A stretch of 64,000 nt of DNA from Acidimicrobiia bacterium (lineage in GTDB: Bacteria; Acidobacteriota; Vicinamibacteria; Vicinamibacterales; CAVVIG01), in assembly GCA_016871175.1 (NCBI GenBank), contig VFZL01000014.1:25032-89031 (forward strand). Direction: 5' to 3'. The position numbers and the translations under genes were made by a program. This document shows positions 2,545 through 42,527 of the stretch, in pieces. The notes below the pieces were generated by a model. The model searched no databases and was not told where the DNA came from. It saw nothing but the letters and a program-made list of their open reading frames with translations. The first letter of the stretch is position 1. Each line of letters starts with the position of its first letter.

Positions 2545-3657
2545 TCATCGAAGCCTCGCCGGCACCGTGCCGAGGTCGCGGGCGGCTGGCGTGCCGGCAA
2601 GTGACTCGGCCTTCGACACAGCTCGAACGATCGCCTCAGACAGCGCGTCGGCCGCGAGCGCGCCGACGATAGTGACGCTGATCGGTTCCGCCAGCCGCCC
2701 GGTCGCCAGCGAAAAGACCGTATCACCGTCCCCAATCGTGTGCGACGGGGTGATCGCGCGCGCCAGGCCATCGTCGGCCATCAACGCCACACGGTTGATC
2801 TCGGCCTTCGTGAGCGTCGCGTTCGTGGCGACCAGCGCGATGGTCGTGTTCTGGCCGGGTTGCGGCTGTGCCCGATTGGCACGTGGGAGCAGCGCGCCCG
2901 ACCTGATGAGCGTGCGCACGTCGGCCAGGCTCCTGCCGTCCTCAGTGCGCATGCCCGCGACGACCTTGCCGGTGGAGGGATCGATGACGTCTCCCACGGC
3001 GTTGACTGCGACGATGGCCCCAACCACGAGGCCGTTCGGGAGCGCAATGGCCGCGGATCCCACGCCGCCCTTCATCGAGCGTGGCGGTCGTCCGGATCCG
3101 AGCTTGCCGACCGTGGCGCCCGCACCTGCGCCGACATTGCCCTCCGCGACCGCCCCGTCGGTCGCTGTCTGGGCTGCCCTGTACCCGCACTCGGCGGTTG
3201 GCCGCACCTTCGGGTTCCCTCCGAAGCCCAGGTCCATCAAGATCGCGGCCGGGACGATGGGGACGACGCCGTTCTGACCGACCGGCCATCCGATGTTTCG
3301 TTCCTCGAGGTACCGTACGACACCCTGAGCGGCGTCGAGTCCATAGGCGCTGCCACCCGAGAGCACCACGGCATTCACTTTATCCACCATGTTCGACGGA
3401 TCGAGGAGGTCCGTCTCGCGTGTGCCGGGCGCGCCCCCGCGCTGCGAGACACCGCCTACGGCTCCGGGCCCATCGACGAGGATCACCGTGCACCCGGTCG
3501 GTCGTTCCGCCAGCGTGTGATGGCCCACCTTGAGGCCCTGGACCGCGGTGAGCCCCTTCGCCGCGACGGCGGACGTGGCCGTCGACGGTGCACGCGACGT
3601 ACCCGTCGCGGCCGCCGCTACGAGAAGGCCCACTGAGGCGAGAACGGTTCGTGACAT
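2545..3657 (-). CDS. P1/S58 family peptidase (DmpA-type L-aminopeptidase/D-esterase)
   Basis: 370 aa with a signal peptide. Family-typical blocks are GVSQRGGAPGTRETDLL, VVLSGGSAYGLDAA and NTTIALVATNATLTKAE. Confidence 0.85.
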   Translation of the reverse strand: MSRTVLASVGLLVAAAATGTSRAPSTATSAVAAKGLTAVQGLKVGHHTLAERPTGCTVILVDGPGAVGGVSQRGGAPGTRETDLLDPSNMVDKVNAVVLSGGSAYGLDAAQGVVRYLEERNIGWPVGQNGVVPIVPAAILMDLGFGGNPKVRPTAECGYRAAQTATDGAVAEGNVGAGAGATVGKLGSGRPPRSMKGGVGSAAIALPNGLVVGAIVAVNAVGDVIDPSTGKVVAGMRTEDGRSLADVRTLIRSGALLPRANRAQPQPGQNTTIALVATNATLTKAEINRVALMADDGLARAITPSHTIGDGDTVFSLATGRLAEPISVTIVGALAADALSEAIVRAVSKAESLAGTPAARDLGTVPARLR

Positions 3658-3696
3658 AGAGGACCCATCGGTGCCCCGTTGCCGCCGGCCGCACCT

Positions 3697-5294
3697 TCAG
3701 AAACTGTACTTGATCGCCAGCTGCACCACCCGTCCATCTTCAGCGGCAGTGATCTGGCCGAACTGAGGTGTGCCAGCCTGGTTGCCGGTCTGGGTCACTC
3801 CGGGTACGCCGGTGCCGGGATTGCGGAACTGCGTCTGATTCCAGAGGTTGAAGGCGCTTGAGGCGTGGCGCCGATGCGGTTGTACGAGATGCGCGCCACG
3901 TTGTAGAGATTTGAGCCAAAGATGTGGGTATCGGCCACCATCGCGTCCTAGAGGGTCGCCTTCGCCAACGTGCCGACCGGGCGCGTCGTCGGCGGATCTC
4001 GACGATCGGTGCGGCTGAGCATGTACCGGCCGAGGATGGAGTGCTGGACGGCGGGCTGGTAGTCGAACCGCAGCCCGAACTGATTCCGTTGGTCGATCGA
4101 GTCCGGCGAGAGCACGTACCGGGTGGTCCCCGTATTGGCAGCCGGCACGAAGTCGCGGACCAGTTGGAGCGCGGACTGATTCAGGCGGTCCGTGGGGATC
4201 TGATTGTTCGAGAACGGCAGACCCGTGAGGGGATCGCGGATCGTCGTCGTCCCGAAGTTCCCGGTTCGCTGGGCAGTGCTCAGGACCACGACGTTCTGAG
4301 TCACGCCGCTGGTGTTGCGGAAGCCCTCATAGTAGCCGAACCCGAACAAGCGGTTTCTGGCCAGCGGTCCGCCCAGGGTGCCGCCGAACTGATTCTGTTG
4401 GAGCTTGGGCTTGGCCTGGTCCGCCGCGGCGAAGTAGTTGCGCGCGTTCAGGGCGGTGCTGCGGTTGAAGTCCCACGCCGAGGCGTGAATGGCGTTCGTC
4501 CCACTGCGCGTCACGACGTTGACCACCGAGCCGGCGTTGCGTCCGTATTCAGCGCCGTAGGAGTGCGTCAGGATCTTGAACTCCTGAATGGCATCCGGCG
4601 GGGGACGCAGGACGAACCCCGTGTTGAACGTGTCGTTGTTGCTCGCGCCATCGAGCAGGAAGTTGTTGGACTGGTTCCGCTGGCCGTTCACGCTGAAGCC
4701 CGACGTGGCTGCGCCAAAGCCGCCCGGCGTGGCGTCGCCAGCGCCGCTACCGAGGGCAGCCGGTGGGGCGAACACGCCCGGCAGCAAGGTGCCGAGCTGC
4801 GTGAAGTTGCGGCCGTTGAGCGGCAGGTCGACGATCTGATCGCGCGTGACGACCAGACCGAGCGTCGCGTGTCGCGTTTCGACCAACGGGACAACGGCCG
4901 ATACCGAGACGGTCTCTTCGATACTGCCGACGTTGAGCTCGATGTCAACGCGCGCCGTGCTCGTGACGGTCACGGCGACATTCGAACGCTCGACGGCACG
5001 GAATCCTGAGAGCGAGCCCTTCACACGGTAGGCGCCTGGGGGCACCAGCGGAATCGTGTGGCGGCCGCTCTCGTCCGTCACGCCCGTTCGCGTCTGGTTC
5101 GTGTCGACGTTCGTCACGTCGATCGTCACCCCAGGCAGTACCCCACCGGACGTGTCAGTGACGACGCCGGCGATCGAACCGGTCGCCTGTGCGCGCAGGC
5201 TCGACACAGTTCCGAGCAGCGTCACGACGACGGCGAGCGGCACGCCGATTCTGCCCGCGGCCCGAGCTCTCACGATTGGCCTGCGCTCTTGCAA
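3697..5294 (-). pseudogene. TonB-dependent receptor (carboxypeptidase-regulatory-like N-terminus), disrupted and internally deleted
   Basis: Signal peptide (start TTG 5294 or GTG 5273), a GSIAGVVTDTSGGVLPGVTIDVTN domain and a plug (LPLNGRNFTQL). The ORF ends at in-frame TAG 3948-3950. The same frame continues DAMVADTHIFGSNLYNVARISYNRIG. The frame then changes and joins the canonical C-terminus AFNLWNQTQFRNPG...FGQITAAEDGRVVQLAIKYSF* (stop 3697-3699). Most of the barrel is missing. Confidence 0.7.
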
Positions 5295-7978: not shown

Positions 7979-9603
7979 CAGCGCTCGCCCTCCGGAGCGC
8001 GACCCAAGTAGTCACGAAAATCGACCACCGCGTCGACGATCGCGCCTGCGATGGAGCTCTGGAACTCGCTGTTGCCCAGCCGCGCCTCCTGTTCGGGGCT
8101 GCTCAGATAGCCCAACTCGATGAGGACAGCCGGCATATTCGCGGACGCGAGGATCCGGAGGAGAGCCCGGTCGGTGGGACGGACGTCGAGCGGGGCGGTT
8201 GCCCCGATGCGCCCCTGCAGGAGATCGGCGAGCACCGTCGATTGATCGATGTAACGAATCTGCGCCAGGCTCCAGGGGACGAGCTCGATGTCGCGGATGC
8301 CTCCGCCGAAGACCGGCACACGGTGAGGTTCCAGGACGCGGCGCGCAAGGCCTTCATCGGGGAACTGGGCCACGAAGACGGATGCGCCGGTGTTGGAGGG
8401 CCGGAACGAGGCATTGGCATGGAGGCTGATGAACAGATCGGTCTTGTTGTTATTCGCGACGGCAGTCCGGGCTTCGGGCGGTAGCTCGCGATCATCGTCG
8501 CGCGTCATCAGCACGCGGAGACCGAGCCGTGTCTCGAGCAGGGTCTTCACGCGGCGGCCCACGGCGAGCGTCAACGTCTTCTCCGTGAGGCCACCGCTGC
8601 CCTGGACCCCGAGGTCGGGACCGCCATGGCCCGGATCGATGGTGACCGTACGAATGGGGGACGTCGGCTGACCGAACGTGGGCAGATCCGCCGGTGGTGT
8701 GGGGACCGTCGAACCCGCCGGCGGAGTCGCTGCGAACCCTGGAGCGGATGACGCCGCCGCGCCTGGGGCACCCGCTGTCGCCGAGCCCGTTGACACCGAT
8801 GGCCCGTCGCTCGGAAGCGGGAGGAGGTCGAGGCTCAAGCGCGTCACGTTGTCGACGGCCTGCGTCGAGGACCGATACGATCCGAACCGCGGTCCGAGGT
8901 CGATCGCCAGCGTGACGGGATCCATCCGTCGAATGGCCTGAAGAAACCCCTGCGGCGGCACACCGGGAATGGTGGCGTCGATCGCGTCGGCGTCGAACTT
9001 CAGCGTGAGGTGATCCGCTTCGCGGGTCAGCGTGCTGGTCGTCGACGGCGTGATCTCGACGATCAGCCGGTGGCCCACCGGTTGCGGCTCGGATGTCATC
9101 GTCACGCGTGGCACTCTCAGATCGCCGACGATCAACAGATGCGACGCCCGACGCAGATCGATCCGCGTGTCGGCGATCGGCGCAAGCGCGCGACTGATGA
9201 AGTCCACCGGCACCCACAGCCGACCGGCGATGCGTGCTGGCCGCGTGGGAAGCGAGATCATCCGGCCCGCGACCGACGCAATCGTCTGCTCCGGGTTGAA
9301 GATGACCGTCCGCCCGCGAGACGAGACCGTGACAGCCCCTGCTTCCTCGCGGACCGTCAGTTGGAAGACGGCTGCGAGCTCATCCAGGGAGACGAGCTCC
9401 TGATCGTTGACCACCGCGAGGGGAAGCGCTCGGCGTGTGTCACGGGAGAGGAGCGTGAGCGATGTCTGGCCCTGTCCGAGCAGGCGGACCATCAACGACA
9501 CCGCAAGGACGAGCCCGACGGTAGCGAACCAGGCAATGGGACGGGCCACTCGACGTGCCGTCACCGCGGTGCGCGGTGGATCACGGATGATCAGACCCTC
9601 CAT
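7978..9603 (-). CDS. amiC: N-acetylmuramoyl-L-alanine amidase (Amidase_3, AmiC-like) with an AMIN-like N-terminal region
   Basis: 541 aa. The catalytic region reads VTIDPGHGGPDLGVQG...DLFISLHANAS...LIELGYLSSPEQE. Confidence 0.9.
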   Translation of the reverse strand: MEGLIIRDPPRTAVTARRVARPIAWFATVGLVLAVSLMVRLLGQGQTSLTLLSRDTRRALPLAVVNDQELVSLDELAAVFQLTVREEAGAVTVSSRGRTVIFNPEQTIASVAGRMISLPTRPARIAGRLWVPVDFISRALAPIADTRIDLRRASHLLIVGDLRVPRVTMTSEPQPVGHRLIVEITPSTTSTLTREADHLTLKFDADAIDATIPGVPPQGFLQAIRRMDPVTLAIDLGPRFGSYRSSTQAVDNVTRLSLDLLPLPSDGPSVSTGSATAGAPGAAASSAPGFAATPPAGSTVPTPPADLPTFGQPTSPIRTVTIDPGHGGPDLGVQGSGGLTEKTLTLAVGRRVKTLLETRLGLRVLMTRDDDRELPPEARTAVANNNKTDLFISLHANASFRPSNTGASVFVAQFPDEGLARRVLEPHRVPVFGGGIRDIELVPWSLAQIRYIDQSTVLADLLQGRIGATAPLDVRPTDRALLRILASANMPAVLIELGYLSSPEQEARLGNSEFQSSIAGAIVDAVVDFRDYLGRAPEGER

Positions 9604-31861: not shown

Positions 31862-33103
31862 ATGATGGAGAGACTGATCGCCGTCGCGATGCTCGTCGCG
31901 ACCGCCGCAGCGCTCGCCGCGCAGATGGCACCGAGCGTCACGCGCTTCTGGATCCTGGACGTCGGGGCTATCACCGGCGCCACCGAGCCGTCGCGCGTCA
32001 ATAACAGCGGCGCGATGATCTGGAATTCCGGCGGACACGCCTTCGTGTTCCAGAACTGCCAGTCGCGCGACATCGGACACCTCGGCGGCGGTCGAACCGT
32101 GGCCTGGGCCATTGGGCCCGACGGCAGCGTGGTTGACCGGTCGCTGAATGCCAGCGGAAGGTGGCGGGCTTTCCGCTATGCCGGCGGCGTGATGAAAGAT
32201 CTCGGCGGCGGCGCCTCCAGCACCCTCATCCAGGAGGAGGCGACCGCGACCAATTTCTGGGGCGACGTCGCGGGCGTCGAGTCGGTGGGCGCGACCAACC
32301 TCAGCCCGACCGCGGTGCGCTATCAGGATGGCGGTGCCTATGGAATGGCCTTCGCGTCGCTGCCGCCCGCCGGATTTGTTCGCGTCCAGCACGTGGTCGA
32401 TATGAACGACAGCCGCATGGTACTCGGCGCGGTCACCATCAGCGGCGCGATTACGACGTTCATCTCCAACAACCTTGGCTACCAGTGGACCACCGTCAAC
32501 GGTGTGCCTGGTCGGGAGTTCTCCACGTTTCCCAGCGCGATGAACCGTGTCGGGCACGTTACCGGGACTGCTGGCCAGGGCGTCGTCCGTGCCTTTCTGT
32601 CGCGTGATCCGACGCTTCCGGCGGCGGACCTCGGCACCCTCGGCGGTCCGATCTCAATCGGAAACGGGATCAACAATTACGACTGGGTGGTCGGTTTGTC
32701 GCCACGGGCCTTCGTTCACGACGGGAGCACGATGCACGACCTGAACGACCGCGTTTGGAACGGCACGGGTTGGGAACTGCGCGAGGCGTTTGACATCAAC
32801 GACTTCGGCGTGATCGTCGGCCAAGGCGTGCTGAACGGCGCGAAGCACGCCTTTATGCTGCTGCCAATGTCGCGCTTTCCGCGGACTCCGCCGTGCCTGG
32901 TGACGCACTCAACTCTAACCATATCTAGGAGTTACAGTTCAGACGACAGCCGATCGTCACATCGCAGGGCGCTGACCTGGTCTTACGTGCATGATGGCCC
33001 CACGGCGTCGCCGGACCCCTCTGATGACGTCGGCCGAACCGGCTCGCAGCATGACGCGTCGCCGTGTGCACCTCGACGTGGGCGCCGTGACTTACATCGA
33101 TGA
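31862..33103 (+). CDS. HAF-family extracellular repeat protein; C-terminal tail doubtful
   Basis: Signal peptide MMERLIAVAMLVATAAALAAQ. HAF-like repeats end in AFDINDFGVIVGQGVLNGAKHAFMLLP. The last roughly 75 codons (32870-33103) are not protein-like and cross a locally AT-richer patch. Confidence 0.6.
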   Translation: MMERLIAVAMLVATAAALAAQMAPSVTRFWILDVGAITGATEPSRVNNSGAMIWNSGGHAFVFQNCQSRDIGHLGGGRTVAWAIGPDGSVVDRSLNASGRWRAFRYAGGVMKDLGGGASSTLIQEEATATNFWGDVAGVESVGATNLSPTAVRYQDGGAYGMAFASLPPAGFVRVQHVVDMNDSRMVLGAVTISGAITTFISNNLGYQWTTVNGVPGREFSTFPSAMNRVGHVTGTAGQGVVRAFLSRDPTLPAADLGTLGGPISIGNGINNYDWVVGLSPRAFVHDGSTMHDLNDRVWNGTGWELREAFDINDFGVIVGQGVLNGAKHAFMLLPMSRFPRTPPCLVTHSTLTISRSYSSDDSRSSHRRALTWSYVHDGPTASPDPSDDVGRTGSQHDASPCAPRRGRRDLHR

Positions 33104-33309
33104 GAGGCAGGGCCGACCCGCGGTGCAGCGCCACGTCGTCGCCGTTCTCGAGAACGTCACTCCCTGCGAAGCGCAACCCTGTCCGCTATTCTTTCCTCCG
33201 GGTGATCCACGCTCGCTCGCCGTCCTGGAACTGCCGGCTGGAGCGGGCGTCACGACTGGCATCACCGTGGGATCTGCGGTGATGACCAGGTCGAGCGCAT
33301 CGATCCTCT

Positions 33310-33339
33310 AAAAACGCCGACGGGCGCTGCGCGCCCGTC
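33310..33339 (-). terminator. GC-rich hairpin plus T-tract downstream of the corrected NLR stop (intrinsic terminator and/or DGR-type target hairpin)
   Basis: The minus strand reads GACGGGCGC-gca-GCGCCCGTC-ggcg-TTTTT (9-bp perfect stem 33319-33339, T-run 33310-33314). Confidence 0.6.
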
Positions 33340-33391
33340 AGAGCACAGTGGATCAGCAGTCCAGTGATCAGCGCTATCAGTGAACAGCCGT

Positions 33392-33510
33392 TCAACGGAT
33401 GGGGGAGACACACACCACACGAAACCCGATGAGGCTGCCCCGGTCGACGGGGTCGTAGTTGCCGCGGGACGTCGCGCGCGCTGTCCCGAATGTAGCTCCA
33501 AGACCCGCCG
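33392..33510 (-). other. putative DGR variable-region-like 3' end of the FGE-sulfatase domain
   Basis: In the corrected frame this reads GGSWSYIRDSAR..TSRGNYDPVDRGSLIGFRVVCVSPIR*. 18 of 23 codons after GGSW are NNC (ggc aac tac gac / gtc gac / ggc agc ctc atc). That is the pattern expected from AAC-templated adenine mutagenesis. No matching full template repeat is present in the window. Confidence 0.4.
33398..33431 (-). repeat. copy A of a roughly 35-nt direct repeat (3' end of the NLR coding sequence)
   Basis: The exact 24-mer GGGAGACACACACCACACGAAACC (plus strand, 33403-33426) recurs at 37627-37650. Flanks extend the match to about 35 nt with one mismatch and one 1-nt indel. Confidence 0.9.
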
Positions 33511-36500
33511 CGCAACACCCGGCGCACCCCTTCCAGGTCTGCATTCTCGCGACCATCCTTCGCGTCGTATCGGTACCGCTGGTACGCCGAGCTGGTCCAC
33601 TCCCATACGTTGCCTGCCATGTCGGCAATGCCGTCGGGCGTCTCGCCGTCCGGGAAGATGCCGACTGGGGTCGTACCGCGCACGTGGCTTTCGAACGTGT
33701 TGCAGTGAGTGGCCTCGAACATGTTGCCCCAGGGGTACACGCGGGATCTTCTGAAGGGGTTGAGGCTCACCTGGCTCCCACGCGCGGCGCTCTCCCACTC
33801 CGCTTCCGTCGGGAGCCGCCACGCCTGGCCGGTTTGCGCCGACAACCACGCGCAATAGGCCCGCGCCTCGTGCCAGCACACACCGACCACAGGTTGCGAC
33901 GGGTGGTTGAACGCCGGGTCGTTCCACTGAGCGGGCTGCGTGCGGCGTCCCGCTGGGTACCACTTTTCGAGAAGCTCCTCGAAGGCCGCATCGTTCATCC
34001 GTGCGATGACCTGAAAGCCTTCAGCCTGAGCACTTGTGATGCGACCTTGCCGCTGAAACTCAGGGATGCGATCGAAATGCTCCTGATACAGCTTTCGGTT
34101 TTCGCGCTGTTGCGACTTCGGTCCGTCAGCGGTGCTCTCGCCGCGACGCCAACGCCGCGCGGCTTCTGTCTGCCACCATCGGTCGTCTTCATACCCGCCG
34201 GCCTGCATGAAGAGGCTCCACTCAGCATTGGTCACCGGGAAGCGCGCGATCGCGAAGGCGCCGAGAGACACGTCGTGCGCAGGTCGCTCATCCTCCGGGC
34301 CATCGTCGCGGCCAATGCGATACACGCCAGGAGACACCGCCACGAGCGGTGGCTGCAGATAGTCACCGTGAGGACCGTGTTGGCGCGCGAAGCGAGGATC
34401 GCCGAGTTCGGCCAGAGCCCGGGCCGCAGCGATGCGCGCGAGCAGATCGGCCTCTGGGTCGCGGCTCCGGACCAGCAGATCGCGCGTGAGGGTGCTGCGG
34501 CACACCTCCGAGATCCGCACGTCGGGCTGCGCGGCGCATCGCCCGGCGAGCGGGAGATTGACGGTCATCACCGCGTGGACGAACGAATCGGCGGTGGCCG
34601 ACGCGTGGCCCGAGGCACCATCAGCTGCCGCCATGGGCGAAGCGAGCATGAAGGTGTCCTCCCAGCCAGTTTGAGGCGCCGGCGGGAGTGGGTCGTTGTC
34701 GCTCTCGAACCGCGGCGGCGGCAGCTGCTGCACTCGCCACGGCGTCGCGACGAGCTGCGCGCGATCGGCGAGCGACGACGGCGCCGTAGCGGCGATCGCC
34801 CGTGCGGCGAAATACTCCTGTAGCAGCTGATGGACGAACAGCACCTCGTCGCGCGCACGGTCGTCGTCGAGCACCTGCAACGCGACGCCGGCCTCGAGCA
34901 GCCTGTCGGGCGCGGAGCTGCCGAGGAGGACCCGCGCGAGGTCAAGCGGCACGCGCACTTGCGCGCCCTCGCCGGCCGTCCGCTGCTCCTGCATCCCGAC
35001 GGCGAGCGACGACAACGCGGGCACGAGCGGCCCACGCGCGGGCACATCATACGCGTCGCGCCACGTGGCGTTCACCAGGCGCGCGTGCTCGCGCGCATCG
35101 AAGAGCACGCCCGGCTCGAAGAGCGGATGCTGGGCACGCACCTCACGGTCGAGCGCCTGCCGGAGGAATCTCGTAAAGAGCGCCGCGCGGCCTGGCGGCA
35201 GTGCCCCGTCGGGCTCCGCCTCCGCGACCAGCATCTTGAGATAGAACGGCGGTCGAAAGAGATCGAGTTGCGGCGTGCCCTTCACGTTCCGCCACATCGC
35301 GTCGCCGTGGTCGGGGCTGCACACCAAGAGAAACGACTCGACTTGTTCATCGGACAACCGTTCGATGCGCACGTGCGGCACGGAGAGCTCTGCCGTGGAG
35401 AGCGGCTCGCTATAGTCCAGACTTCGGCACGAGATCACGACGCGCGTGCCCGGCGCGCGTCGTACGACATCGGCAACCAGCCCTCGCCAGAGGCTGACGC
35501 GCTCGCGGTAGTCCTCGCCGCTCGAGTGGGGCATCTCATTGAGAGCGTCGAGCAACAGCACCAATCGCCCGGAGCGTAGCACCACATCAAACGCTGGCAG
35601 GTGCGGGAACTCACGGGACTACTGCGCGGCGAGCCACGCGTCCGGTGTGGGCACGCCTTCACTGGGTGACGCCGCACGATGGCTGCCAAGCCGGACGAAC
35701 ATGGTCCAGCCTCAGGTTCCCGCCGATTCACCTAACGCCGCTGCGGCCAGGTCCAACTCAAGGCGCCGCAGGAGCGTGCTTTTACCGCTCCCAGGAGGGC
35801 CGAGCACGACGATGGCCGGCGCCGTCTCGGCGACGGCGGTGAGCACGTCGCGGAGGTCGTCGAACGACTCGGGTCGGACCTGCCAGCGCGCGCCGTCCGC
35901 GTCGCGGCCCTGGTCGACCAGGAGCGTCAGGCGGGTGAAGCGCTTATCGAGCGCGAACTGCGGCTGTGACCACGCGGCGATGCGATGCAGGCAGAATTCC
36001 TCGTGCGTCCGTGGCGCATGCCGGAGGATGCGGGCCAGGATCTCGTCGGGTGTGCCGGCCGCGACCTCTGCCGCCTCGGGTGGGGACGCGACCCGCTCCC
36101 GCAGCACAGCGAGCGCCTCTAACGTGGCGGCGTCCACGGGCGGCCGAGGACGGTCGTTCAGACTCCAACCGTCGCGCAGCACCAGTCGACAGAGGCCCTC
36201 GAGCGAGTCAAAGGCTGCCCAGTGCTTCCCCGAGGCCTTGATCTCCGCGACGAACGCACGTTGCTGTGACGCCTCGACCTCGGCTTGCGCCGATGGGTGG
36301 GTGCGCAGGAATTGATCGGAGGCGAGGTAGACGTACATCGGTTTCGGCTCAGCACGCTGCCCGTCGAGCCGTTCCCCACGTGCGAAGCCGTACTCCCACT
36401 GCGTGTAGGACCGTGGAGGCGCCCCCTCGGGCACCGCGTCGCCACTCGCTTCGAACCCGTAGGCGTCGCCGACGAGGGCAATCACACGGTCGCAGCCCGC

Positions 36501-36649
36501 CACGTACTCCTCGAGCCGTTCGAGGAGCGTCCGTGGCCCGGTCTGAAAATCCTCCTGGACCTTGACCTCGCAGCCGATGGCGGCGAGGTCGCTGCGTAAG
36601 GCGTCGCGGCACGCCTTGAACTGGGCGGTGACGGCGGACAGGAACACTC

Positions 36650-37120
36650 TCATCGACGCGCCCGAAAGCGTATGCCAAACCAGGCTACCTCGAACAGGTG
36701 CGCGCCTAAGCCCCACGTGTCGCCGTACCGGACATGAGCGAGCCACCCCTGGACCGAGGCGTCGAGCGCCGCGAAGCTGACGTGGCCCGCGTGATACGCG
36801 CCCACGCGGCTCCGTAGGCGTCGAGTGGCCGCACGAACCTTGCGGGCTTTGACACGCCGGTGCGTGGGGAACACCACGAACCCAAGCCATGGAATGCCGT
36901 TGGCGACCGGCTGCACCTGGGCGGCCGACTCGTGCAGCGTGAGTCGCAGACGAGCGAGTCGTTCGATGATGGCGCGCTTCCAGCCCCACAGCGTGCGCGC
37001 GTCGTCGCCGAAGAGGCAGAAGTCATCCACGTATCTGACGTAGGCGCGGCAACCCAGCTGCCGTGTCACGAACTGGTCGAACGAGTGCGTGGTGAAGGAG
37101 GTGAAGTGGTGGCCGATGAG
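36650..37120 (-). pseudogene. reverse transcriptase C-terminal fragment (DGR-type), N-terminal motifs missing
   Basis: ...[27 protein letters not shown] (YxDD at 37019-37042), then [34 protein letters not shown]...[17 protein letters not shown]. About 157 aa are recognisable. Upstream residues of the 330-aa track ORF are antisense to the avd-like gene. The stop overlaps the NLR ATG (ATGA 36650-36653). Confidence 0.75.
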
Positions 37121-37450
37121 ATGGTGATCTTCACGCGCTGTTTCGATCTGCTGACGTGGCTCTTGCCCAAGGTGGACACGTTTCCGCGCGCACACCGTTT
37201 TACCGTGACGAAGCGCCTCATGGACGCTGCGCTCGACCTGCAAGAGACACTGATCGAGGCGCAAAGCCAACGCGGCCAGCCCCGGCTCGAGGCGCTGCGG
37301 GTCGCCGACGCGGCACTCGCCAGGCTGCGTCTGTACTTGAGATTGGCGCATCGATGGCAGTGGATGAGCGTCGGGCAGTATGCCCACGTCAGCGCAGTGG
37401 TGGCTGAGATTGGACGTCTGCTGGGCGGGTGGCTGAAGCAGGCCACATGA
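37121..37450 (+). CDS. avd: four-helix-bundle protein, Avd-like (DGR accessory variability determinant family)
   Basis: [48 protein letters not shown]...[37 protein letters not shown] matches the FPK..RF.L..R pattern of the four-helix-bundle/Avd family. An alternative start is GTG 37109, 7 nt after AAGGAGGTG (37093-37101). Confidence 0.8.
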
Positions 37451-37455
37451 AAGGC

Positions 37456-37491
37456 GGAACGCCTTGAGGCGCGGCGCCCGAAAGGCGTTCC
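37456..37491 (+). terminator. hairpin immediately after the avd-like stop (possible intrinsic terminator)
   Basis: GGAACGCCTT (37456-37465) pairs perfectly with AAGGCGTTCC (37482-37491). The loop is GC-rich and 16 nt long, followed by tgttgtgta. Confidence 0.5.
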
Positions 37492-37621
37492 TGTTGTGTA
37501 TGCGCCCGACGCGCGCGCTGCTGAACGCGCGGCGTGCGGACGGGACGTGCCTGCGCCATCCTGGCTCGTCACCTCGGCCCCCAACCGTGGTCGGGACGCA
37601 ATGCCGGTCTACGCGACGATC

Positions 37622-37656
37622 GATGTGGGAGACACACACCACACGAAACCTCGATG
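37622..37656 (-). repeat. copy B of the roughly 35-nt direct repeat (candidate residual template-repeat 3' end)
   Basis: Non-coding position between the avd-like gene and DUF2971. On the minus strand it reads catcgAGGTTTCGTGTGGTGTGTGTCTCCCAcatc, versus copy A catcgGGTTTCGTGTGGTGTGTGTCTCCCCcatc. The single substitution is A in copy B and C in copy A, and copy B has one extra A. Confidence 0.85.
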
Positions 37657-37678
37657 GCGAGCCCTTGGCTACCCGAAA

Positions 37679-38389
37679 ATGGAAAGCGAGACGATCACGC
37701 TACCGCCTCCGGGAGACTTTCGTCGCGTTTACCACATGATGAAGGCGAAATGGGCGCTCGACGCTGTCGAAGACCAACGTCTCAGGGTCTCCAGGTTCGC
37801 TGACCTCAACGACCCCTTCGAGCTGTTCCCGGTCAATCGCCACACTCACGCCGCCCGAAAAGCCTCGAAGGCATTTGCTCGATATTTCTGGGGCAGGCGT
37901 GGCCTTCTGTCCTTCGGTGGCGACTGGTCAAGTCCGGTCATGTGGAGTCACTACGCTGAAAACCATCGTGGCATCTGCCTGGGGCTCGACGTCCGCAGAG
38001 ATAGCCTGGAGCAGGTCTGCTACGAAGCGGAACGTCTGCGCTTCACATTTGACGAACCCTTCGATCCTGCCGCATGGACCGACGATACGTTCCGAACCTT
38101 CGCCTGTACCAAAGGCCAAGACTGGTCCTACGAGAACGAGTTTCGAAGGCTTATCGATTTGTCGAAGGTGGTGTCCGAACCACCGGACTACTTCATTCCC
38201 TTCGACGATGACATGCGTTTGGCGGAAGTGATCATTGGTGAGCGGTGCGAAGCGCCTCTTGCCCCGACCCGTGAACGCGTTTGCGCGACAGCGCCTTCGG
38301 CCGTGACGTTCAAAGCCCGCCTCGCCTACCGATCGTTTCGCGTGGTTCTGAACGGTCGCACGCGGCCACCTGACTCGCCGCAGGGATAG
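37679..38389 (+). CDS. DUF2971 family protein
   Basis: [49 protein letters not shown]...[19 protein letters not shown] matches the DUF2971 pattern (LR.S....lNDP.E ... mWshYa..h.G.c.g.d). Confidence 0.8.
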
Positions 38390-38806
38390 AACAGCGCGTC
38401 GAACACTGGCGGCCACAGCGGAACGCCCGGTCGCTCAGGCGAAACCTGCGCCGTTGCCGATGCGACACCGAGCGCCGTCACGATGGCCCTGTGTCGACCC
38501 AGGTTCCGACAGCTCCGATCGTCACTCAGTCAACGACGCGGTGACGGACGACCCTCCGCTCGCGTTTGAGCCGGGGCAGGACGGAGGCGTTCCGTCGTGC
38601 CACGAGAGGTGTCGGCGCTGGACACCGACGCGCGTGCCCGCAGCCGTCTTCCCTTGCTACTCGGTGGTGAGCTGCCGCAGAATCGGGCGTGACCACGGCC
38701 CCATCCTCGCTGTCGAAAGGGGGCATGGGGCTGCGTGGGTCCGAGGACGGGCGACAGACCTGATGCGGTGTTCCGCTTCGCAGACAACGCACGATTGGAG
38801 GATGCC

Positions 38807-39679
38807 GTGACACGACGAACGCTGGGCTTCGCGCTGATCACCTTGTCACTGTTGGCCGTGGCCTCGTCTGCGTCGGCGCAGCTCGTCGTCGCCAAGGACG
38901 GCGCCGTGGTGTATGGCCACCATCACCTGAACGTCACGGCGATCGAGCCGCACAAGAAGTTCTTCGTCGATGCGCTCGGCGGGTCAGCCATCAAGATTGG
39001 CACCAACAACCTCGAGATCGTCAAGTTCCCGGGCGTGCTCATCTTCTTCACCCAGCGCGCGCCGACAGGCGGCACGATTGGGACGACCGCCAACCACATC
39101 GGCTTCTCCGTGCCAGACGTGCGGACCGTGGTCGACAGGATAAAAGCGAATGGCTTCAAGATGGTCACCGCCACCGAAGCCGTCGGTCGCCAGGTGAAAG
39201 ACGACATCGCCGCGCCCTTGCAACCCGGCGGAGCGTCCATCGCGTTTGCGCTCGGACCTGATGACGCGAAGGTCGAGCTCGTCGAGGCGCGCCAGCAGAC
39301 CGTCCCGGTCCAACTGCACCACATCCACTTCTTCGCGCAGCAGAACACCGAGATGCAGGCGTGGTACGGGAAGGTCTTCGGCGCCAAGCCACGACGGCCG
39401 GCGGCAGGCGCCGCCTTCGTGTCGTCCGATCTCCCAGGCGTCGCGCTCAACTTCACGCCTTCCCCCACGCCCGTTGTCGGTACGCAGGGACGTGCGGTCG
39501 ACCATGTGGGGTTCGAGGTCCAGAACCTCGACGCGTTCGTCAAGAAGCTCGAAGCGGACGGCATCAAGCTCGAGCGTCCGTACACGAAGGTGGCCGCGCT
39601 CGACATCGCGATCGCGTTTGTCAGGGATCCCTGGGGGACCTACATCGAATTGACGGACGGGCTCGTGAAGGTGCGGTAG
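38807..39679 (+). CDS. secreted tandem VOC (glyoxalase/bleomycin-resistance/dioxygenase) family protein
   Basis: GTG 38807 gives VTRRTLGFALITLSLLAVASSASAQ. There are two VOC-like halves (HHHLNVT...ANHIGFSV and LHHIHFF...VDHVGFEV). Confidence 0.7.
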   Translation: MTRRTLGFALITLSLLAVASSASAQLVVAKDGAVVYGHHHLNVTAIEPHKKFFVDALGGSAIKIGTNNLEIVKFPGVLIFFTQRAPTGGTIGTTANHIGFSVPDVRTVVDRIKANGFKMVTATEAVGRQVKDDIAAPLQPGGASIAFALGPDDAKVELVEARQQTVPVQLHHIHFFAQQNTEMQAWYGKVFGAKPRRPAAGAAFVSSDLPGVALNFTPSPTPVVGTQGRAVDHVGFEVQNLDAFVKKLEADGIKLERPYTKVAALDIAIAFVRDPWGTYIELTDGLVKVR

Positions 39680-39734
39680 GCAAGCTGCACGAGACGCACG
39701 GGTGCGTCAGTTCCTCCTTCGCACGGATGCTGGC

Positions 39735-40745
39735 CTACCGCTTGGTGGTTGCCTCTTTCTCGGCGGCCCGCTGCCCGGAGAGGATGTTCGTCATGCTGTA
39801 GTTCCCCTCGTGGCACGCGTACTCGTACATCGGAAGCTCCGAGCGGCGCAGCGGAATCGCGGCGGTCCAGGGGCTGGTCCACGTCTCCGGATCGATCACC
39901 GTGTACTTGTATTCCAGCGTGTCGGCATCGATGCGCGTTAAGCGCTCGATCAACCGCATGCTCCCGGTCGCGCCTCGCCAACCCCGCTGCTGGTTGAAGT
40001 TGGCGGTTTCGATGGCCAACGTGTCGCCTTCCCAGTGTCCGCGCGAGGCGCCAGACCACTGGCGGATCTGGGGGGGCAGGGCGGGACGTCCGTCAAGCGG
40101 GACGATGCGGGCGGTGTGGATCATTTCGGTGACCAGCGCCACATGATCCTTGGTGAGGGAGATCTGGAGGTTCTGGTTGTAGCCGCCGGGCGTGAGTGGC
40201 GGACCGGCATTGAACCCGACCAGGCACCGGTCCGAGGCGCTGCGGTCCTGCGCCGAATCGGCCGGATGCTCGCGAAGGTAGGCGCGTCGTTCCTCCGCCC
40301 GCCGCTGAGCGGCTGGCGTCAGGGCCGGCAATCGTCCGCTTGGCGGATCGATGACGAGCGAGGTCCGCCGCGTGCCAACCGGCTTGGTGCCGCCGTCCAG
40401 CCAGAAGTTGTTGTAGAAACCGGGTGACCCGTCCTCGCGGAAGTCGACGTTACCGCCGGCGGTCGTCCTCTCGGCCGGACGCTCGTTGAGGCGACGGTTG
40501 CGTTCGATGACATCCTGTTCAGCCTTCGCGGCTTCCTCTTCGGTCAGGAACTCCTTGTTGCCCAGCTCGGCCGGCCGTTCCAGCGGCGTGATGGTGCGGA
40601 AGTCCCAGACACCGCTCAAGTCCGGCTTGCCCCAGGCCGTCCTCGGGACCTTGCTGCCTTGGGCTCCTACAGGCACGGCCAGCCACGACGCCATCACGAG
40701 GACGGCGGCGGCGCGACACACGGAAGCGAGCGGTCGATGGCCCAT
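39735..40745 (-). CDS. conserved secreted hypothetical protein (YEYACHEGNY-motif family), paralog A
   Basis: Start MGHRPLASVCRAAAVLVMASWLAVPVGAQG (ATG 40745). It shares multiple blocks with 59505..60602. Confidence 0.6.
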   Translation of the reverse strand: MGHRPLASVCRAAAVLVMASWLAVPVGAQGSKVPRTAWGKPDLSGVWDFRTITPLERPAELGNKEFLTEEEAAKAEQDVIERNRRLNERPAERTTAGGNVDFREDGSPGFYNNFWLDGGTKPVGTRRTSLVIDPPSGRLPALTPAAQRRAEERRAYLREHPADSAQDRSASDRCLVGFNAGPPLTPGGYNQNLQISLTKDHVALVTEMIHTARIVPLDGRPALPPQIRQWSGASRGHWEGDTLAIETANFNQQRGWRGATGSMRLIERLTRIDADTLEYKYTVIDPETWTSPWTAAIPLRRSELPMYEYACHEGNYSMTNILSGQRAAEKEATTKR

Positions 40746-41030
40746 TTCATCCCCCTGGGAGGTCGCGGCTTTGCGGTTCGATATCACGCCGAGGCTACGG
40801 GGTTCCCTGAGCCGTGTCAAATCGGCAGTCGCAGTGAATAATCAGCCGCTCCAACCGAATTCCAAGCGGGCACCGGATCGACCTCCTGCATTCCGAGGCG
40901 GTGACGCACCTGCCTCCGCATCGTGAAGCCCTGCGCATCTGCGGGGGATCTGCGCCCAGCCTTCGGTCGGGAAAGCTATTGTCCTGGGTCTAGAATTGCG
41001 TCAGTCTTACACGGACACGAGGGTGCCGAC

Positions 41031-42527
41031 ATGCGCAGGACAAGCATTGGTGGCGTCGTCGCGATCGTGCTCTCCGCCGCCGGTCTGGACGGGGCGAGCG
41101 CGGATCTGCGCCTGATCGACGCGGCGAAGCGGTCGGACGTGACCGCCGCGCGCACACTGGTGAAGCAAGGGCTGGACGTGAACACGCGCGCGGGTGACGG
41201 CGCGACGGCCCTGCACTGGGCGGCGTACCGGGATCAGGCGGAACTGGTGCAGCTGCTCATCCGATCGAACGCCGCGGTGAACGCGACCAACGATCTTGGC
41301 GTCACACCCCTCTGGGTAGCCGTCAGCGGCCAGGGCACGGCGACGGTGGAGGCGCTGCTCACGGCGGGCGCGAAGCCGAATCTCGCGCCAGCCACAGGCG
41401 AAACGCCCCTGATGATCGCGTCGCGCACCGGCAATCTCACGGCGCTCAAGCTGTTGCTCGCCCACGGCGCCGACGTCAACGCGAAGGAGGCGGCACGGGG
41501 TCAAACCGCGCTGATGTGGGCCCTGTCGGATCGTCAGCCGCAGGCGGCGAAACTGCTCATCGAAGCGGGGGCCGATCTTCGCGCCCGGACCGTGTCATCG
41601 AAGCAGTTCGTGCAGTTGTGCTGCTCGGAGTACAACGGGGACACCCGGGGCACCGCGTGGGTGGACTACGGGGGATTCACGCCGCTTCTGTTCGCGGCCC
41701 GTGAAGGCGAGCTCGACGCGGCGAGATACCTGCTGGAGGCTGGCGCCGATGTGAACGACGCCGGGGCGGACGGCGCAACCGCCCTCGTGGTGGCTGCCTT
41801 CAGCGGACAGCCGGCCGTGGCGCAGTTGCTCATCGAGCACGGCGCCAATGTGAACGCCGCCGGCGGCGGGTACGCGGCGCTGCACGCGACGGTGCTTCGC
41901 GGCGATCTGAGCCTCGCGAAGTCGCTCATCGCGCACGGCGCGGATTTGAACGTACGGCTCACCAAGGCGACCCAGGCGAGACGGACACATGACGACTTCG
42001 CCTTCGATAAGAAGATGATCGGCGCGACGCCGTTCCTGTTGGCGGCCAAGGACGGCGAGGCCGCGTTCATGCGAGCCTTGGCTGCGGCGGGCGCGGACCA
42101 ATCGATCGGCCGGCTCGATGGCGCGCCGCCGCTGGTCGTGGCCGCGCTGGGCGAGCAGCACGCCAGAAACGCCGTCACCTTCATGGTCGAGCCAGGCCAG
42201 CGGGCAACCCGCGAGGCCGAGCGACGGGCGCTCGAGGCCACAAAGGTCGTGCTCGAACTCGGGGCGGACGTCAACGGCGCGGACAGAGCGGGCGACACCG
42301 CCCTGCACGTGGCCGCGCGTAAGCGGTTCGAGAGCGTCATCCGGCTTTTGATCGACAAGGGCGCCCGCATCGAGCCGAAGAACCAGCTGGGCGAGACGCC
42401 GCTCGCGCTGGCGCTGCGGCCCCTTCCTCCCCCACCGGGCGCTGTGATCGCCACATTCGGCATGGCCCTCACCGACGACGGACCGCGCATCGCCGAGGTC
42501 CTGCGAAGCCTCGGGGCGAAGGAGTGA
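41031..42527 (+). CDS. ankyrin repeat protein (secreted)
   Basis: Signal peptide followed by many G.TALHWAA...LL..GA.VN repeats. Confidence 0.85.
   Translation: MRRTSIGGVVAIVLSAAGLDGASADLRLIDAAKRSDVTAARTLVKQGLDVNTRAGDGATALHWAAYRDQAELVQLLIRSNAAVNATNDLGVTPLWVAVSGQGTATVEALLTAGAKPNLAPATGETPLMIASRTGNLTALKLLLAHGADVNAKEAARGQTALMWALSDRQPQAAKLLIEAGADLRARTVSSKQFVQLCCSEYNGDTRGTAWVDYGGFTPLLFAAREGELDAARYLLEAGADVNDAGADGATALVVAAFSGQPAVAQLLIEHGANVNAAGGGYAALHATVLRGDLSLAKSLIAHGADLNVRLTKATQARRTHDDFAFDKKMIGATPFLLAAKDGEAAFMRALAAAGADQSIGRLDGAPPLVVAALGEQHARNAVTFMVEPGQRATREAERRALEATKVVLELGADVNGADRAGDTALHVAARKRFESVIRLLIDKGARIEPKNQLGETPLALALRPLPPPPGAVIATFGMALTDDGPRIAEVLRSLGAKE

Follow-up and report, generated by a model that had tools for sequence, protein, structure and literature searches.

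The window is the whole stretch of DNA analysed here and is 64 kb long. Related loci, designated by L numbers, were compared with it. Contigs of several relatives came from protein-search matches to the reverse transcriptase (RT); four more metagenomic loci were located by a degenerate DNA pattern of the template repeat (TR) end. Six loci possess complete TRs (L002, L003, L006, L007, L008 and L009). L001 nearly duplicates L002, and for L010 the comparison covered TR and spacer. The features of the window are:

33310-33391, minus strand: flank downstream of the variable repeat (VR), rich in CTG, CACTG and CTGATC, followed by a GC-rich hairpin (33341-33317) and a T-run; conserved with L005 and L008.
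33392-36653, minus strand: target pseudogene with DUF4062, a STAND/NACHT-type NTPase and a C-terminal FGE-sulfatase (CLec-fold) domain, assigned by Pfam.
33398-33528, minus strand: VR; its 3' end (33398-33431) is the IMH-like repeat copy, and the VR ends two codons before the stop.
36650-37088, minus strand: C-terminal remnant of a DGR reverse transcriptase, about residues 211-355 of about 366 (some 145 residues); YVDD and thumb are kept, motifs 1-4 are gone.
37089-37120, no strand assigned: avd 5' leader and deletion junction, from blastn of L008 against the window and a local junction alignment.
37121-37450, plus strand: bAvd accessory gene, full-length, 109 aa (PF22296, E 5.4e-21, profile positions 1-106 of 107).
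37451-37621, minus strand: conserved structured spacer from the TR 3' end to the avd stop (DGR RNA spacer), from BLAST, shared blocks and a consensus fold.
37622-37656, minus strand: very probable DGR template repeat stub (TR 3' end, IMH*-like), sense strand CATCGAGGTTTCGTGTGGTGTGTGTCTCCCACATC, holding the exact 24-mer at 37627-37650.
37682-38389, plus strand: DUF2971 gene, outside the DGR (Pfam PF11185, E 1.8e-7).

The domains of the target are all present. Pfam reports DUF4062 (1.4e-10), P-loop matches to AAA_16, nSTAND5 and NACHT, and FGE-sulfatase (PF03781, 2.8e-49). The VR is located at the 3' end of this CLec/FGE-type gene, as is characteristic of a DGR. An intact tripartite ORF of the NLR-like/antiviral STAND type does not exist, i.e., the frame is interrupted by two in-frame stops between Walker A and Walker B (TGA at 35712-35714, TAG at 35619-35621) and by a frameshift in the sensor. 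Relative to the TRs of the family, 2 nt are deleted in a (GC)n run of the VR at about 33472-33482. By this deletion the terminal ...ATSRGNYDPVDRGSLIGFRVVCVSPIR* (the GFRVVCVSPIR frame) is disconnected from the main target ORF. The nonsense codons and the 2-nt deletion lie outside the independent contig described below and, therefore, could in principle be errors of assembly or base-calling.

The stop codon of the RT remnant (TGA, 36650-36652) overlaps the start codon of the target (ATGA). A protein search with the remnant returned 528 homologues. The unrelated top matches are 55-77% identical, the best of them 60-70%, and are annotated as RNA-directed DNA polymerase or PF00078; identity with the intact RT of L008 is 64%. 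The ancestry is clear, the enzyme is incomplete as the set of catalytic motifs 1-7 is only partially present. In a tblastn search with the intact 366-aa RT of L008 only residues 200-355 were matched, and the RT N-terminus is absent from the 64 kb. Compared with L008, about 690 nt (L008 1094-1784, comprising the avd-RT intergenic region and RT codons 1 to about 211) are replaced by 5 nt at 37089-37093.

Three other interpretations of this region were rejected. The resemblance of 'LIGHHFTS' to RT motif 4 (IGNLTSQ) is a coincidence; homology at the DNA level begins at 37088. A conserved split or recoded RT was considered, as database homologues have 271-274 aa and none exceeds 274 aa; in L006, however, a single frame is open across the RT and upstream of V(V)HHALCN, where gene callers place the start, and the clustering of lengths is an artefact of gene calling. 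Finally, an inversion of a segment comprising avd, TR and the RT N-terminus is contradicted by the orientation of the repeat and by the divergent avd, which is native in all relatives that retain this gene. The orientation of avd in the window is therefore no rearrangement. The RT break at about residue 211 and an independent break in L011 (about residue 214) are only some 9 nt apart, and the IS in L009, where RT homology ends at about residues 195-208, is near. The proximity of the breaks in the window and L011 may be coincidence, may reflect microhomology (CGTTC in L011) or may indicate a hot spot.

Repeat finding and BLAST gave an identical order in L001/L002, L003, L006, L007 and L008: TR(+), spacer, bAvd(-), RT(+). 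In related loci the TR 3' end is 160-250 nt from the avd stop, with 184-250 nt in the loci just named, and the avd start is next to the RT start. An upstream target with a VR1 is optional; often a convergent second target with a VR2 is present. The second target of the relatives is convergent with the RT, whereas the target in the window is co-directional and start/stop-coupled. Thus, the cassette layouts are not identical. In the window a full-length bAvd adjoins the RT and the TR end, which again is a property of DGRs.

The spacer between the repeat and avd is conserved. In blastn it matches L009 with 76% identity over 212 nt (E 1e-33) and, with avd included, L008 with 71% over 542 nt. Across eight loci, i.e., the window and seven relatives, the blocks CCGG.A.TGC, GACCACGGT, GGCCGAGG, GATGGCGCAGG, GTCCCGTCCGCACG and CGTCGGGCGCATA are invariant. 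RNAalifold predicts a consensus fold with 45 pairs, 16 of which display compensatory changes. The spacers of the relatives are located at 4452-4686 in L002, 7135-7321 in L003, 6171-6414 in L006, 5917-6127 in L007, 502-752 in L008, 5172-4995 in L009 and 349-590 in L010. At a permissive threshold no Rfam family was assigned to 33000-38500. According to a terminator scan the distal hairpin of the spacer (37473-37489) is predicted to double as terminator of avd on the plus strand. The spacer is a conserved RNA-like element and probably the equivalent in this clade of the Sp priming region of BPP-1.

On the opposite side of the repeat the character of the DNA changes. Between 37650 and 38350, beginning at the break point of the TR, the GC content is 57-60% compared to about 67% in the flanks, and GC3 is 0.68 compared to about 0.8. 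This base composition suggests, short of proof, that the DUF2971 DNA was horizontally acquired and replaced the TR body. The avd/spacer block is now co-oriented with the low-GC DUF2971 gene and possibly co-transcribed. Gene callers start the DUF2971 ORF at a GTG at 37496, across spacer and stub, which probably is a mis-start. A further ORF of 330 codons (36650-37642, minus strand) has a GTG start inside the stub in the VR frame (VVCVSHID...) and reads on without a stop across spacer and antisense avd as far as the RT remnant; most likely it is an accident of high GC content. The ORFs in the wider flanks are ordinary housekeeping and metabolic genes by Pfam. Pfam analysis of the flanking ORFs, tblastn and TR scans found no other DGR parts in the 64 kb.

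The first-pass annotation of this DNA had drawn attention to a 24-mer present twice in the same orientation. A pattern search in the 64-kb window bears this out: GGGAGACACACACCACACGAAACC has exactly two copies on the plus strand, at 33403-33426 and 37627-37650, and further copies with up to 3 mismatches do not exist in the window. The flanks had been said to extend the match to some 35 nt with one substitution and one 1-nt indel. Precisely this was obtained in a Smith-Waterman comparison of 33300-33700 with 37400-37800. The sole alignment pairs 33398-33431 with 37622-37656 in 35 columns with one G/T substitution and one 1-nt indel; the comparison with the reverse complement yielded noise only (best score 20, versus 58 for the forward alignment). 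The copy at 33.4 kb is coding on the minus strand as proposed, yet the protein does not end with ...SPI. It encodes ...GFRVVCVSPIR*, the last residues of the FGE-sulfatase domain, with the stop at 33392-33394. For the copy at 37.6 kb a distance to avd of about 170 nt had been given; 172 nt separate it from the avd stop at 37450. Similarity had been placed as ending around 37660 at the beginning of the DUF2971 gene. Homology to the window's own VR as well as to the TRs of the relatives ends at 37656; the ATG of DUF2971 is at 37682.

What is the copy at 37.6 kb? It is on the sense strand of RT and VR, 172 nt from the stop of the antisense avd, and continues into the conserved spacer. This is the position of a TR. 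The complete TR of L009 ends with CATCGGGTTTCGTGTGGTGTGTGTCTCCCACATCGA and equals the window copy except for a single extra A; the TR 3' end of L008 differs at 2 positions. The extra A, in CATCGAGG, is specific to the window copy, which has it in comparison to the window VR as well as to the L009 TR. Upstream the similarity to a TR ceases. In the six complete TRs among the seven matched by the terminal-motif scan described below, ATCGG is preceded by AACAACAAC or AACGACAAC (AAC AAC AAC or AAC GAC AAC); the window has ...agggctcgcc instead and no AAC codons upstream. A complete TR comprises about 125-135 nt with an AAC-rich body homologous to the entire VR. With the AAC body absent and homology ending at 37656, the window copy qualifies as a stub, not as a TR. 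In an adenine-tolerant scan neither strand of the 64 kb yielded a trace of a TR body. Similarly, 37650-42000 was compared by Smith-Waterman with the 5' segments of the TRs of L008 and L009 and with that of the window VR; the scores did not exceed those of shuffles, and the TR body was therefore not simply displaced by the DUF2971 DNA. The 5' break is situated somewhere within CATCG(A)GG, where the 5-nt CATCG may represent leftover homology, microhomology at the junction or a coincidence.

We consider it very probable that the copy at 37.6 kb constitutes the 3'-terminal 30-35 nt, approximately, of the TR of a now-dead chromosomal DGR with an NLR-like target. The proposal in the first-pass annotation, the 3' end of a template repeat which had lost its 5' part, is supported by position, strand, the TR-specific ending, the spacer and the missing AAC-rich body. 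A comparison with the TR/IMH architecture of relatives points in the same direction: their complete TRs fix position and ending, and the stub fits.

The TR-specific ending warrants closer inspection. A terminal-motif scan matched seven independent TRs of relatives (L002, L003, L007, L008, L009, L010 and L011; L001 is the near-identical copy of L002, and the divergent TR of L006 was unmatched). All seven end with TC(C/T)CACA(T/C)C and then continue into the spacer. Likewise, 12 of 12 independent VR ends matched, from the window, L002, L003, L005, L007, L008, L009 and L011, end with CCCCCAT(C/T). In eleven of these a stop codon comes next, then a CTG/CACTG-rich stretch and, mostly, a GC-rich hairpin with a T-run; the flank of the twelfth, the second match in L009, is unrelated. 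In every TR/VR set examined an A in the TR is opposed to a C in the VR at the same position. The two copies in the window conform to this rule. The stub reads the TR-type CCCACATC and runs into the spacer; the copy at 33.4 kb reads CCCCCATC followed by TGA, the CTG-rich flank and the hairpin. A stub of merely 35 nt can thus be assigned to donor (TR) or recipient (VR) by a one-base marker together with the downstream flank.

As judged from the aligned sequences, the A/C difference is a fixed distinction of donor and recipient at the 3' border (IMH*/IMH-like) or else a strongly or universally selected Pro codon. The A in the 37.6 kb copy in place of the C in the coding copy, as well as the extra A, had been recorded correctly in the earlier annotation. 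As a sign of adenine mutagenesis the observation fails: the A/C difference is a family-wide marker and, consequently, no evidence of such mutagenesis at this locus. The sense strand of the 24-mer is devoid of adenine; hence TR and VR are identical across it. Both repeats share an adenine-free 24-mer, which continues as CCCCCATC in the VR but as CCCACATC in the TR, and only the VR is followed by an inverted repeat rich in GC; this is an arrangement of the IMH/IMH* type, with a putative function. IMH and IMH* and the 3' boundary of mutagenesis have been described (PMC5758913, PMC3240598). Further, the 34-nt VR ends of the window and of L005 are identical even though the DNA of their FGE domains is only about 67% identical, which suggests a constraint at the nucleotide level.

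Has the window VR been diversified in the past? The window's own TR/VR pair consists of 35 nt with a single, family-fixed A/C difference and is too short for a direct test of adenine-specific mismatches. Alignments of the window VR with the TRs of L008, L009 and L010 contain 25-32 mismatches, 15-18 of which are on TR adenines (Fisher p 5e-8, 7e-6 and 6e-6, respectively). As an example, against the L008 TR mismatches occur at 18 of 32 A sites and at 9 of 106 other sites (p 5e-8). This concentration on adenines indicates past diversification of the window VR, and is indicative and not proof because these TRs are heterologous, stem from other organisms and are 74-79% identical.

A flank found after VRs, never after TRs, is common in the clade. 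CTG, CACTG and CTGATC motifs are repeated every 7-15 nt over 50-80 nt in the window, L003, L005, L007, L008, L009 and L011, mostly with a hairpin of the type GACGGGCGCG-CAG-CGCCCGTC and a T-run. It may be a recognition element on the recipient side or simply a terminator. In L005, a Vicinamibacterales MAG (CAWJOG010000010.1), the VR end is at 4135-4167 on the plus strand and the downstream hairpin is identical or nearly so to that of the window. A transposase fragment is located just downstream of this VR end, and the 8 kb of this locus that were covered contain neither RT nor avd.

The repeat, its homology to a TR end with spacer, the deletions and the pseudogenisation are observed; the ancestral mechanism as well as the order and cause of the lesions we infer as follows. 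By analogy with the Bordetella phage model, an RNA covering the TR and the structured spacer would have been reverse-transcribed from the TR 3' end, with random misincorporation when adenines were copied. The cDNA would then have replaced the VR, anchored at the 3' side by the adenine-free, GC-rich GGTTTCGTGTGGTGTGTGTCTCCC which is identical in TR and VR. The ancestral target would be the gene directly downstream of the RT encoding DUF4062, the STAND NTPase and FGE-sulfatase. The 3' border is marked by the fixed difference, ...CCCACATC in the TR and ...CCCCCATC in the VR, with the CTG-rich flank and GC hairpin after the VR only. One deletion or replacement removed the AAC-rich TR body of about 100 nt and everything upstream, and low-GC DUF2971 DNA now abuts the break. 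A second deletion of about 690 nt took the avd-RT intergenic region and RT residues 1 to about 211. Between the two, the block of avd, spacer and stub survives intact. The target has two nonsense codons, and the 2-nt deletion in its VR has been left unrepaired by retrohoming.

The truncations of RT and TR and the unrepaired VR frameshift lead us to predict that retrohoming activity of the cassette is absent. An active DGR would be expected to overwrite a 2-nt lesion in its VR. The lesion persists, and the cassette is read as dead. It is very unlikely that the cassette is still alive through an intact DGR of its clade (with a TR ending ...TCTCCCACATC) located elsewhere in the genome, with which the avd/spacer/stub block, the VR or both would act in trans. 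Admittedly, avd is full-length, the spacer has kept all conserved blocks, the putative recognition features on the VR side are intact including a 34-nt VR end identical to that of other lineages, and genomes with several related DGR loci, some of them degenerate, are known (PMC10907252). However, the stub has none of the mutable adenines of the TR body and is therefore unable to serve as a template for diversification. The target carries two stops, the deletion inside the VR has not been repaired and no other DGR part is present within 64 kb. An intact avd of 330 nt would be expected by chance at the lesion density of the 3.2-kb target.

The chance is slimmer still that the copy at 37.6 kb is a remnant of a second VR, i.e., the 3' end of a lost upstream target comparable to target 1 of the relatives. 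Relatives do have a co-oriented upstream target with a VR ending 170-300 nt ahead of the TR, and sequences of the 24-mer type are common to VR ends. Yet the stub has the TR-type CAC where 12 of 12 independent VR ends have CCC. It is followed by a TR-type spacer conserved with seven relatives and not by a stop codon, CTG-rich flank or hairpin, and the 172 nt to avd suit a TR, not a VR. A TR stub thus remains by far the preferred reading.

TR/VR repeats are known to confuse assemblers, and the window probably stems from a MAG, as does its nearest relative, L005. That the shortened layout is an artefact of assembly, a mis-join or a collapsed TR/VR repeat, is nevertheless extremely improbable. An independent Logan contig (SRR7053297) is 100% identical to the window over 3,949 nt (35879-39827) and runs from the glyoxalase gene through DUF2971, stub, avd and RT junction into the beginning of the NLR-like gene; moreover, a TR collapsed onto a VR would not yield a spacer-plus-stub context. 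Finally, next to nothing speaks for a chance match or a dispersed short repeat unconnected to the retroelement: the 24-mer is of low complexity (GT/CA-rich) and short repeats abound in high-GC genomes, with many 70-75% matches listed, yet a 24-mer is expected to occur 0 times by chance, none of 100 dinucleotide shuffles of the window had a match, the flanks of the two copies show family-specific TR and VR contexts, and a scan of 185,579 representative genomes, which also answers the earlier concern that the 24-mer might be dispersed, gave a single match, which lies in a Vicinamibacterales MAG where a homologous FGE-sulfatase gene has its 3' end and with it a homologous VR end.

The dead cassette in the window has company. 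L009 has kept TR and spacer, lost avd, and carries an IS in the RT (region 2990-4380, DDE transposase ORF 2790-3602). L011 (100-1740) has lost avd and RT residues 1-213, its TR is truncated and an ORF of 396 aa is inserted in the spacer. The RT of L001/L002 is split by a MITE-like insert of 146 nt (L002 5600-5746) with terminal inverted repeats CTGAGGGCGTGACAGAACGTT...AACGTTCTGTCACGCCGTCAG and a 10-bp target duplication, GGCGATGATC. The RT of L003, a Betaproteobacteria MAG, has an in-frame stop at 7983-7985 (about aa 91, ...RII*PGFERVF) where the relatives have Glu. This stop is specific to L003; it may be a true nonsense mutation or stem from an error of assembly. Altogether, lesions in RT, TR, avd or target affect 5 of 9 independent loci, the window counted. 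DGR cassettes which diversify NLR-like sensors appear to decay often.

One may speculate beyond this point. The lesions might be non-random, caused by a recombination or insertion hot spot in the RT or by an RT-independent co-option of the avd/spacer block; separately, the A/C difference and the CTG-periodic VR-only flank might represent the entire code by which donor and recipient are discriminated in this clade. We regard these two propositions, taken jointly, as unlikely. By itself the locus matters little. It is a fossil of a well-understood system and a useful worked example. Automated DGR finders would miss or mis-score decayed loci of this kind. The spacer and the VR-only flank, now defined for the clade by the comparative set, could guide experiments on target recognition.

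The closest counterparts of the window are L008 (Ga0209515_10033626) and L009 (Ga0233425_10018859), which share with it the TR 3' ends, the spacer blocks and similar avd and RT sequences at 71-76% nucleotide identity. They differ from the window in state of preservation. L008 possesses a complete TR of 133 nt, an intact RT of 366 aa and two VRs; L009 has a complete TR, but avd is gone and the RT is interrupted by an IS. The window has one co-directional target coupled to the RT by the start/stop overlap, whereas the relatives have two flanking targets.

The DGR of the Bordetella phage BPP-1 (mtd with VR, avd, TR and brt; IMH at the VR end, IMH* at the TR end; PMC5758913, PMC3240598) has several traits in common with the window: an adenine-poor, GC-rich 3' segment in both TR and VR followed by a short, imperfect stretch in which donor and recipient diverge, a GC-rich inverted repeat confined to the downstream side of the VR, Avd, and a CLec-fold target with a C-terminal VR. 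Unlike BPP-1, avd in the window is divergent and positioned between TR/spacer and RT. In place of a phage tail fibre, the target is a STAND NTPase of the NLR-like kind with a CLec domain of FGE type, the hairpin is about 55 nt from the VR end and resembles an intrinsic terminator, and the element is chromosomal and defunct.

DGRs with STAND NTPase-CLec 'antigen sensors' constitute clade 5D of Dore et al. 2024 (PMC10907252). As in these loci, the target in the window combines an N-terminal effector/adaptor, a STAND NTPase and a C-terminal FGE/CLec domain with the VR; it is set beside them by layout, not by phylogeny. Judged by the nearest genome match alone, the likely host is a Vicinamibacterales-like member of the Acidobacteriota. 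Degenerate DGR loci, often duplicated, with machinery missing or pseudogenised and with IS elements and MITEs involved, are known as well (PMC10907252), and the pattern of decay in the window and in L001/L002, L009 and L011 resembles that of degenerate clade 5D loci. The window locus is a further example of a degenerate DGR in a clade that diversifies NLR-like sensors, of a kind already known.
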